47,725 bases of DNA from a virus (lineage: Duplodnaviria > Heunggongvirae > Uroviricota > Caudoviricetes): positions 1 to 47,725 of the IMG/VR virus record IMGVR_UViG_2617270974_000008; one strand, 5' to 3'. A model generated the notes under the pieces. It was not told where the DNA came from, ran no database searches, and saw only the letters and a program-made list of their open reading frames with translations. The translations under genes and the position numbers were made by a program. Positions 33,841 to 37,618 of the stretch are shown here, in pieces (position 1 is the stretch's first letter; each line of letters opens with the position of its first letter).

Positions 33841-34938
33841 TTATGGTATTAATCCAGCTGTTCTTGCTTTATTAATATAATTTTTACAGTGGTTAGCCAA
33901 ATACTCTGCAAACTTGCATGGAAGTGCATTTCCTATTATGACGCATACTTTATCCATCAAAGCTGTATCAAACACATAGTTATCAGGAAAAGTCTGTAGT
34001 CTAGCAGCTTCTCGAACAGAAATAGTACGCGTATCCTCAGGATGTCCATATCGCCCACGGCTTAAAGTTGTGCACCCACCTGTAATCGTAGGCGATACGT
34101 CATCCCAAAGCATACGACCATAAACATTACTAAATCCTTTATAGTCGCCTTTATGGCAATCTGGACGGAGTTCTTCGGGAATACACTCCCAAGACATCCC
34201 TGGAACAGCCGCTTGTAACCGCTTTATATTGATCTCAGACAAATCCCTAACAATATGCCAACTCGACAATGGAAACTTCCCTTGCTTCTTAGCCTGTGAA
34301 AGAGTTAAGGGTTTTGGCATATCTCCAATAGCTTCTTTAACAGTTACCCATTTGGGTTTCTCTCTTCCATCCTTAGAGTGTGATCCATCAGGCAATGGGA
34401 TGGCAAATCCTTTTCCTGCCAACAGAACAAGCCTTTTTCTGAACTGTGGTACACCAAAGTCAGCTACTTGCAAAACTCCATAATTAACTATGTAACCAAG
34501 TTTTTTCAATCTCTCAATTACTGGCGAAAGAAGATGATTTCCCCGGGAAGCTAATCCAGGAACATTTTCCATCATGATTGCTGATGGATTGGTTTCTTCA
34601 ACCAACCGTAACATCTCGTTAATCAATAAATTACGAGGGTCCTCCCTTTTATACTTGGCAGTGAGACTAGTAAATCCTTGACATGGCGGGCACGCAGATA
34701 AAAGATCTAAATGTTGCTCAGGGATAAGATTTAGGATATCACTCCCCTTTACAAACCGAATATCTTGAACAAAGAGTTTTGTCTCACGATGATTTGCTTG
34801 GAAAGTAGCGGCGGCATGTGCGTCCAGTTCAACGGCAGCTTTGACATCAAACCCGGCCATTTTTAGTCCCATGGTTAGTCCCCCACCACCGCTAAATAGG
34901 TCAACTGCATTCAAACTGGTCACTGTTTTCTCACTCAT
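33841..34938 (-). CDS. DNA (cytosine-5)-methyltransferase
   Basis: 365 aa; motif I DLFSGGGG, motif IV PPCQGFT, motif VI ENVPGL, motif VIII QFRKRLV, motif X IGNALP; start overlaps upstream gene stop by 8 nt. Confidence 0.9.
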   Translation of the reverse strand: MSEKTVTSLNAVDLFSGGGGLTMGLKMAGFDVKAAVELDAHAAATFQANHRETKLFVQDIRFVKGSDILNLIPEQHLDLLSACPPCQGFTSLTAKYKREDPRNLLINEMLRLVEETNPSAIMMENVPGLASRGNHLLSPVIERLKKLGYIVNYGVLQVADFGVPQFRKRLVLLAGKGFAIPLPDGSHSKDGREKPKWVTVKEAIGDMPKPLTLSQAKKQGKFPLSSWHIVRDLSEINIKRLQAAVPGMSWECIPEELRPDCHKGDYKGFSNVYGRMLWDDVSPTITGGCTTLSRGRYGHPEDTRTISVREAARLQTFPDNYVFDTALMDKVCVIIGNALPCKFAEYLANHCKNYINKARTAGLIP

Positions 34939-37042
34939 TATTTCCCAACTTCAACTGTTCTGCCTCATCCAAGAATTCTTGGTGAGTTTGAGTTGTCCTC
35001 AGCAAGAACCCTGCCCAATCAACGGGTGTTAGGCGTTTTTCTTCGATGTATGCAGTATAAGCTTTACGACGTGCCCCACTCAAGCGCTCCCCATCACTTA
35101 CCAGCGTAACGTGAAAATCAGATGCTATTGATTTAAAATCATTATGTCTCTCATCGTTCAAAAACTCCTCGAATGTTTCGAAGTAATTAATAATACGATC
35201 CATTTCATCATTGGAAATATAATGATGTGGCTTTTTTATTTCAATTATTTGTAATTTTCCATCCTGACTAAACAATACAAAGTCTGGTCTTTTATTTTTT
35301 TTATCAAAATCTATAAGAAATATCTCCTCACCAGTTTTCTTTTTATAAAATTTTTGAAATTCCCTTTTAAGCGTGGACAACGTTTTATTTGCTGTAACTG
35401 GGACCCATTGAGGGTTAACTAGCCACGGAGCGGATGCAATTAGATCTTGTAACTCATCTTCTGCTGTATCCTTTGCGTCTTTTAAAGACTCGAGACGCTC
35501 AATAATCTGAAGACGCTTTTTGACCTTTTGACCAAAACTAACGGTTTCAGCTAGTTGAGCCGTTGCTAAAATATCGTTGAGAACATTGAGCGGTGTATCC
35601 GCTTTACTGGAAGCTTCTATTAACTTCTCATCTAAGGATTGTAATGGTGCTAACATAATACTTAACTGCACTAAATTCTCGAGTGCATCAGGATCATGTA
35701 ATTCATCACCTCGTAAAGATTTACCCAACAACTTGGCTATTTTTTTAGCCTGTGCTCGCATATCCTTTTGACCGGCTCCAGGGTATGCTTGCTCGACCTT
35801 ATCCTCCACTTGCGCTAATTCGAAGAATTGATTCATCATATTATTTCTAAGGGGGTCGCGAGTTATTTTACCCACAAGTAAAATAACTTCTTGCCCCCAA
35901 TTCTGAAATTGCGTTCCTAAATCATCAGACCATAGAATATCCCTTCTATCAGTTTGGATAAGATCTTCTTTTTCGTCTAACCAGTCAGCATGCAACTCAC
36001 CTACCAAATATGAACGTATAGAGTGCTCTCCAGTAAAACCAGCTTTTCTATTAAAAACTGCTGTTTGCGCAGCAAACTTACCTCGGCAATAAATTCTAAC
36101 ACCTGCCATTAACTCGTCCTTATAAGGCTCTTTCGCGTATGCAATCCAACCTAATATCGGGTAAGCTTTCCCTTCATGTTCAAAACCGGCCTTAACAATT
36201 GATGAACGCGTGCCGTCAGGATTAAAAGCCGTATAATCACTTAAATCCGTACAAGAATCTGTCGCAATACTTCCACTCATGGAACGAAATTCAATTTTAG
36301 AGTTAGGCATAACAGGAACAGTAAACTCTCCGACCTCAACTTCATAGTCAGGATTAGACTTTGTTTTCGAAGTATCAATCAGTTTAATATTCCAGTTTTT
36401 ACTCTTCACTCCAAAACGTTGTGAAAGCTGCCGAGATAAATCTTTTATTTCGCTAATTTTTCTATATTCAAAATCACTTAATATTATTTTAGTATAGGTC
36501 CTGTCACTTAGTGTGCCGTCTAAATCCCCAGTTTCCGGTTTATAAGACACTGCAGTATCATCCATTATTTTTTCTTTATCTAGCTGAATATGAGCAACCT
36601 CATACCCTTCCTTTCCATCACGACTGATTTTTTCCCCACCGGCACTTATAATCTCGACCCTTTTACAAACACCAAAAGGTGCTAATTTCCCAACGCCTTT
36701 CCGTCCCATGACTTTGCGGTGAAACACCTTCGAGGTTTCACCTCTTTTTGGATCCTTACGTCTTTCTTTGCCAACAACCAAATAAAAGTTCTGTAGTTCA
36801 TCAGGCGCCATTCCGACGCCATTATCTTCTACTTCTATTGTGACATTTTTTGACCTGACAACACCATCCTGTCTAACAGCCAAGTATTGGCCCATAGGTG
36901 CTTTTATAGTGACATTAGTCGCATCTGCATCGTAACTGTTAGATACTAATTCGGCTATAACAGCATAAGCCCTGTCATATAATTTCACACCTAATTTATC
37001 TACTGTCATCCTTGATATCTGCATTTCATATTGACGCGCCAT
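34931..37042 (-). CDS. GHKL (Bergerat-fold) ATPase fused to C-terminal PD-(D/E)xK-like nuclease motif
   Basis: 703 aa; N-box ELVSNSYDADAT, G1 DNGVGM, G2 GRKGVGKL; C-terminal ...RPDFVLFSQDGKLQIIEIKK (PD...E-x-K); AT-rich codon usage; SD AGGA before ATG. Confidence 0.8.
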   Translation of the reverse strand: MARQYEMQISRMTVDKLGVKLYDRAYAVIAELVSNSYDADATNVTIKAPMGQYLAVRQDGVVRSKNVTIEVEDNGVGMAPDELQNFYLVVGKERRKDPKRGETSKVFHRKVMGRKGVGKLAPFGVCKRVEIISAGGEKISRDGKEGYEVAHIQLDKEKIMDDTAVSYKPETGDLDGTLSDRTYTKIILSDFEYRKISEIKDLSRQLSQRFGVKSKNWNIKLIDTSKTKSNPDYEVEVGEFTVPVMPNSKIEFRSMSGSIATDSCTDLSDYTAFNPDGTRSSIVKAGFEHEGKAYPILGWIAYAKEPYKDELMAGVRIYCRGKFAAQTAVFNRKAGFTGEHSIRSYLVGELHADWLDEKEDLIQTDRRDILWSDDLGTQFQNWGQEVILLVGKITRDPLRNNMMNQFFELAQVEDKVEQAYPGAGQKDMRAQAKKIAKLLGKSLRGDELHDPDALENLVQLSIMLAPLQSLDEKLIEASSKADTPLNVLNDILATAQLAETVSFGQKVKKRLQIIERLESLKDAKDTAEDELQDLIASAPWLVNPQWVPVTANKTLSTLKREFQKFYKKKTGEEIFLIDFDKKNKRPDFVLFSQDGKLQIIEIKKPHHYISNDEMDRIINYFETFEEFLNDERHNDFKSIASDFHVTLVSDGERLSGARRKAYTAYIEEKRLTPVDWAGFLLRTTQTHQEFLDEAEQLKLGNNE

Positions 37043-37618
37043 TTAAATATCCTTCTAAAAGAGTATTTTTTGCTCAAAAAGGGGAAGTTTATGTTTGACT
37101 AACATAGCAAAAAAACTTTCATCTTCAAGAGGTTCACACCAAAAGAATTTACCTGGTTCACATAACCAGCTGGATTAGTGTTGAGTTTTGGGTAAACCTG
37201 AGGATTGAGAAACCAGTACTGATAAATGGGTATCCGCTGTTTTCGTCCCTCTCCTGAGCTACCGTGTATTGAAATGGCATCGACACTATTACATGGTAGG
37301 AGGTTGTATGTATGGTTTAGATATTTTGCATCTTTCACAGACACTTTTTACCTTTGCCATATCCTTCCACATTGTTTCTCCGGAAATCACTAACGGTTTG
37401 GCATTTGCAGAACCATTATCAGCCATAGCTTCTTGCCGTTAACTTCGGTTGCACCTGATTGTTGCTCACCTTCAGGCAATGATGGGTTATATACACGGAC
37501 TGAGCTCACTGCAGTAACAACCTTCCCAGTCAACTTACCTATGCTTTCAACCATCATCGTAGCGGCATACTTCCGAATTGCTATTATTTCAATTCTGCAC
37601 CGTTTGCTCAATGTAACG

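Follow-up and report, generated by a model that had tools for sequence, protein, structure and literature searches.

Introduction

The restriction enzyme R.HgiDII carries an N-terminal GHKL domain (PMC2441816), and its m5C methyltransferase, M.HgiDII, acts on GTCGAC (PMC5867850). The paraMORC3 proteins, in which a GHKL domain, an S5 domain and an RE-fold nuclease are combined, were described alongside DCM and Vsr in restriction-modification (R-M) settings (Iyer, Abhiman and Aravind, 2008; PMC2292703). In VcSduA, a stand-alone relative from Vibrio cholerae that is a GHKL-type Shedu (type I-D), an N-terminal GHKL ATPase is joined to a C-terminal DUF4263-type PD-(D/E)xK nuclease, and mutations in the ATPase (E27A) and in the nuclease (K557A) abolish defence (PMC12137116). 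Shedu genes are often embedded within R-M loci (bioRxiv 10.1101/2023.08.10.552793).

The literatures on REBASE-type GHKL restriction enzymes (HgiDII/BbrUII), on Aravind's paraMORC3 and on the recently validated GHKL-Shedu VcSduA are usually kept apart, and our literature search found no biochemical or structural paper on the role of the MORC-like ATPase in a restriction enzyme. Here, we describe a cassette that links the three. It lies in a 47,725-nucleotide stretch of Caudoviricetes DNA (IMGVR_UViG_2617270974_000008, hereafter the window) and consists of a gene for an ATPase-nuclease fusion (R) and a gene for a cytosine methyltransferase (M). We consider it probable (about 0.75) that the cassette is a self-contained Type II-like R-M operon that a Rac/Qin-like lambdoid prophage carries in a variable slot as cargo (a "moron").

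Results

An AT-rich two-gene cassette in the nin region

Both ORFs, of 703 aa (R) and 365 aa (M), lie on the minus strand at the positions already given in a first-pass annotation of the sequence (Table 1). Recomputing their junction returned the same 8-nt overlap, which is consistent with translational coupling; in relatives, the two genes may overlap by up to 20 nt or lie as much as ~60 nt apart. The cassette had been described as AT-rich, and its GC content is indeed 0.399 vs. 0.506 for the whole window, with 0.445 as the lowest value among the remaining 3.8-kb segments. The proposed nin-region setting was borne out by the flanking genes: a Q antiterminator, RusA and DUF968 downstream, and DUF977, DUF1627 and a DnaC/IstB-like protein upstream. 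In other prophages, QueH and hokD cargo occupies the same slot in place of the cassette, and the slot, flanked by the DUF977 gene on one side and the DUF968/RusA/Q block on the other, is best read as a variable prophage cargo hotspot.

Table 1. Coordinates of cassette features in the window.
Feature	Position	Strand	Basis
Intrinsic terminator (hairpin and T-run), 15 nt past the M stop codon	33805..33826	(-)	terminator scan
M gene, 365-aa C5-cytosine DNA methyltransferase, catalytic Cys86 in PPCQGF	33841..34938	(-)	profile matches
Overlap of R stop and M start, 8 nt (AATAATGAGTGA)	34931..34938	(-)	ORF coordinates
R gene, 703-aa GHKL-ATPase/PD-(D/E)xK nuclease fusion, BbrUII/HgiDII-family relative with paraMORC3 architecture	34931..37042	(-)	profile matches; ORF list
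PD-(D/E)xK nuclease domain, residues ~556-703	34934..35377	(-)	E561, P586-D587, E601-I-K603
Long alpha-helical linker, residues ~366-555	35378..35947	(-)	AF2 secondary structure
S5/transducer-like middle domain, residues ~231-365	35948..36352	(-)	conserved motifs GVRIYCRGK322, YLVGE
GHKL (Bergerat) ATP-binding domain, residues ~1-230	36353..37042	(-)	E31/N35 N box, D73-x-G75-x-G77 G1, G113-R-K-G-V-G-K119 G2
Conserved proximal upstream region with candidate promoter and 5' UTR	37043..37175	(-)	homology to Citrobacter and L018 copies starts ~130 nt before ATG
AGAAGGA ribosome-binding site, 7 nt ahead of the R start codon	37050..37056	(-)	read from sequence
Candidate sigma-70 promoter TTGAAG, 16-nt spacer, TGcTATGTT (extended -10)	37101..37128	(-)	read from sequence and conservation
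Distal part of the gap, 443 bp	37176..37618	(-)	unalignable with Citrobacter (L003/L004) and L018 copies

R is a GHKL ATPase-nuclease fusion and M a complete m5C methyltransferase

The first-pass annotation had read a Bergerat-fold ATPase at the N-terminus of R and a nuclease motif at its C-terminus, and had proposed profile searches and structure prediction as checks. The searches returned HATPase_c_3 in R (E = 7e-19) and, in a 50-sequence family alignment, E31, N35, D73, G75, G77 and G113/K115-K119 are invariant. The C-terminal motif (RPDFVLF...QIIEIKK) is conserved in the same alignment: D587 and K603 are invariant, E601 is present in at least 90% of the sequences and E561 is likewise conserved. 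An AF2 model (pLDDT 77.5) recovered a nuclease (RE) fold at the C-terminus, whose structural matches are restriction-endonuclease folds, with the Shedu nuclease among the top ones; between this domain and the S5-like domain the model places helices at residues 373-409, 423-441, 451-479 and 485-521. R also matched PADLOC REase_II (E = 7e-34), and PHROG 6203 covers it over its full length. Its current labels are "ATP-binding protein" in PGAP and "unknown function" in PHROGs.

The claim of a complete methyltransferase also held. M matched PF00145 (DNA_methylase) at E = 6e-58 over profile positions 2-323 of 324, PADLOC MTase_II at E = 9e-91, and TIGR00675 with 154 bits (cut-off 100.65). Motifs FSGGGG, PPCQGF, ENV, QFRKR and GNALP are readable in its translation, and its sequence matches in the PDB are DNMT1, M.HaeIII and M.HhaI. 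We also considered reading a recognition site from such relatives, and set this aside: methylases that partner BbrUII/HgiDII-type enzymes are only 37-39% identical to M, which, together with the PDB matches, is insufficient for a site assignment. The GTCGAC specificity can therefore not be assumed for the cassette.

R belongs to a class described in 2008

The pair had initially not been recognised as a named system. The profile search did place it: NF050001 ("BbrUII/HgiDII family restriction enzyme", NCBIfam) aligned to residues 5-697 of R over profile positions 1-648 of 659 (E = 3e-70), and PADLOC typed R as a Type II REase and M as a Type II MTase. Since the score of 237 bits falls below the equivalog cut-off of 550, R represents a sister clade rather than an equivalog; ten further representatives of its clade scored 215-310 bits, and no true equivalog was found among the best 150 of 2397 matches of a HMMER representative search, from which these ten were scored. 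As a positive control, we took from a phage collection the CDS annotated "ParaMORC3" of the E. coli phage PhiR44_1, which scored 751 bits and adjoins a gene for a "Dcm protein"; a single protein is thus annotated as ParaMORC3 and lies above the BbrUII/HgiDII threshold. In a BLASTP alignment at ~23% identity, residues 5-605 of R are collinear with this protein, and the D...ExK motif lies within the aligned part.

Full-length collinearity with the BbrUII/HgiDII family extends over the GHKL N-terminus, the middle domain, the helical region and the D...ExK block, and an m5C methyltransferase gene is adjacent in both cases. R differs in being ~50 aa longer. Gene order differs as well: R precedes and overlaps M here, whereas the two genes are convergent around the true member in PhiR44_1, and in phage P37, whose enzyme is more distantly related (329 bits on NF050001), M comes before R. 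Given the sub-threshold score and the low identity, neither activity nor specificity can be transferred from that family to R.

With paraMORC3, R shares intact GHKL ATP-binding motifs, an S5-fold domain after the GHKL domain, a C-terminal RE-fold nuclease with E-D-ExK, and an R-M neighbourhood with cytosine methylases and Vsr. This likeness was judged by architecture, whereas the 2008 family was defined through sequence profiles; many of its members are stand-alone, and the clade of R is one R-M-linked branch. Sequence identity to the GHKL+S5 modules of MORC, MutL and SMCHD1 is 13-17%; R has no CW, coiled-coil or chromatin domains, and its nuclease is fused in cis. R belongs to the paraMORC3/GHKL restriction-enzyme class published in 2008 (PMC2292703; PMC2441816), and the cassette is no new class of defence system. 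A literature search on the accessions WP_021548141 and WP_024190764 found no paper.

R and M are inherited together

An m5C methyltransferase gene adjoins the R homologue in all 19 distinct lineages inspected, and R precedes M on the same strand in 13 of 13 lineages at 48% identity or above. The identities of R and M correlate with r = 0.99, and a Vsr gene lies beside M in seven lineages. As in Type II systems, R and M are separate genes, adjacent and co-inherited. The first-pass proposal of a horizontally acquired R-M or MORC-like pair is supported by this strict synteny and co-divergence, together with the domain matches, the structure prediction and the low GC content.

These data also bear on whether R, instead of being a classical restriction enzyme, might sense infection in the manner of a Shedu nuclease (type I-D, VcSduA-like). 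The GHKL domain would then sense an infection cue or a DNA structure and license a low-specificity nuclease, with the methylase as a self-mark, a safety device or a passenger. R shares its architecture with VcSduA and paraMORC3, which defend methylase-free (PMC12137116), and E27 and K557 of VcSduA appear, by motif position rather than by sequence alignment, equivalent to E31 and K603 of R. The Shedu nuclease match of the C-terminus and the frequent location of Shedu genes inside R-M loci point the same way, as do SduA_C profile matches in 36 of 50 family members and a weak PADLOC SduA match of R (E = 1.7e-5). VcSduA, the closest protein of this architecture with experimental data, is a single gene, free of a methylase and non-toxic alone in E. 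coli, so that a GHKL-nuclease fold by itself need not mean methylation-sensitive, site-specific cutting; this counts against the R-M reading. R itself, however, gave no reportable SduA_C match, and its homologues are paired with a methylase in all 19 lineages. Such strict retention, along with the 8-nt overlap here and the tight junctions in relatives, makes M unlikely to be a passenger or an optional accessory. The linkage to Vsr is typical of m5C R-M systems, and the named family closest to R is made up of restriction enzymes whose site is defined (PMC5867850). On balance, we find a Shedu-type role improbable.

R and M are under strong purifying selection. For both, dN/dS is ~0.03, with nearly equal dN, a value taken from the comparison with L018 alone because dS was saturated against Citrobacter and Pantoea. 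Solitary methylases are frequent in prophages, and shorter R variants and split M fragments do occur among cluster members, some on megabase-size contigs, as would be expected if R were a decaying or inactive remnant and only M functioned, as an orphan-like m5C methylase. Against this, besides the low dN/dS, the copy in the window keeps all family-invariant catalytic residues, an identical R protein occurs on 774 contigs, and the cassette, which 21 of 5426 complete E. coli genomes (~0.4%) carry at 99.2% identity or above, encodes a full-length R in all 21. PGAP annotates both genes in each of these carriers. A remnant is accordingly a very remote prospect.

A short conserved upstream region and a shared terminator

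A long AT-rich leader of ~575 bp had been proposed upstream of R. The gap itself is real (576 bp), but its reading as a conserved leader does not hold: the part that is common to the Citrobacter and the 92%-identical copies and travels with the genes is limited to the proximal ~130 nt (GC 0.323), and the distal 443 bp are less AT-rich (GC 0.427), with no detectable feature. Within E. coli, the distal part occurs only in the same 21 genomes as the cassette, where it is unannotated. In a search for regulatory RNAs, controller proteins and pseudogenes, Rfam, plasmid comparisons and PHROG searches with the 81-aa and 73-aa ORFs all returned no match. To judge by these comparisons, the distal 443 bp belong to the E. 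coli insert, outside the conserved R-M unit.

The E. coli, Citrobacter and L018 copies have the same two hexamers and the same TG in the candidate promoter, and differ at adjacent UTR positions. With 8 of 12 consensus positions matched, the site is a weak fit that did not reach the cut-off of the consensus scan, and that scan was uninformative, with 11 sites found vs. 9.6 expected; the candidate is proposed from conservation. At the other end of the cassette, homology to a prophage with different cargo (L002) restarts exactly at the terminator, which is thus part of the prophage backbone and marks the 3' edge of the insert.

Phage-borne methylases are common at this position, and the module might serve the phage rather than the lysogen: it would be transcribed mainly by read-through from the early right operon during lytic growth, the methylase would shield progeny DNA against restriction by the host, and the nuclease would attack the DNA of the host or of competitors. 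The nin-region location, co-oriented with the replication and Q genes, a terminator scan that detected none between the DUF977 gene and R, and a Citrobacter copy that likewise sits in a nin region all fit such a role. The unit is, however, mobile: besides prophages, it occurs on an ICE-like element of Pantoea and, in unrelated bacteria, on chromosomal islands, and it takes its own conserved upstream region along outside prophages; the cassette also ends at a terminator and has its own candidate promoter. We therefore regard a phage-serving module as quite unlikely. The roles in lysogen defence and in phage growth are mutually compatible.

Discussion

As a Type II-like R-M operon, the cassette may work as follows. 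M would mark one specific sequence on host and prophage DNA with m5C, and R would act as the restriction subunit, built from a MORC/MutL-type GHKL+S5 ATPase, a long helical linker and a Shedu-type PD-(D/E)xK nuclease. ATP binding would induce dimerization of the N-termini, as in other GHKL enzymes; this would shut a clamp around DNA and pair the two nuclease domains, so that both strands of an unmethylated site could be cut. Phage or plasmid DNA that enters without the m5C mark would thereby be destroyed. Expression of the pair is probably driven by a weak extended -10 promoter of its own, ~60-85 nt ahead of R, with translation of M presumably coupled to that of R.

The intact motifs of R and the E27A mutant of VcSduA (PMC12137116) suggest that cleavage would depend on ATP. 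A methylation-dependent (Type IV) enzyme was considered as well and rejected, as R would then be suicidal next to the cognate methylase of its own operon. HgiDII was reportedly first assayed as an ordinary Type II enzyme; if so, ATP may be dispensable for cleavage. We also noted that R precedes M and that there is no controller protein, an awkward arrangement for safe establishment in a new host.

A more speculative idea, which we think doubtful yet worth stating, is that the methylase-coupled GHKL-nuclease clade comprises, rather than classical Type IIP enzymes, ATP-gated, clamp-loading nucleases from the Shedu/MORC lineage that rely on m5C marks, in place of infection sensing, to tell self from non-self. 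If true, this would provide a mechanistic link among Shedu defence, restriction-modification and MORC-type reading of methylated DNA, and cleavage might fall away from the recognition site or need ATP turnover.

The cassette is compact, resides naturally in an E. coli prophage and is strongly conserved, and could therefore be used to probe what a MORC-like ATPase does in a restriction enzyme. In the ~0.4% of complete E. coli genomes that carry it, we predict an m5C restriction barrier that is unannotated as such.

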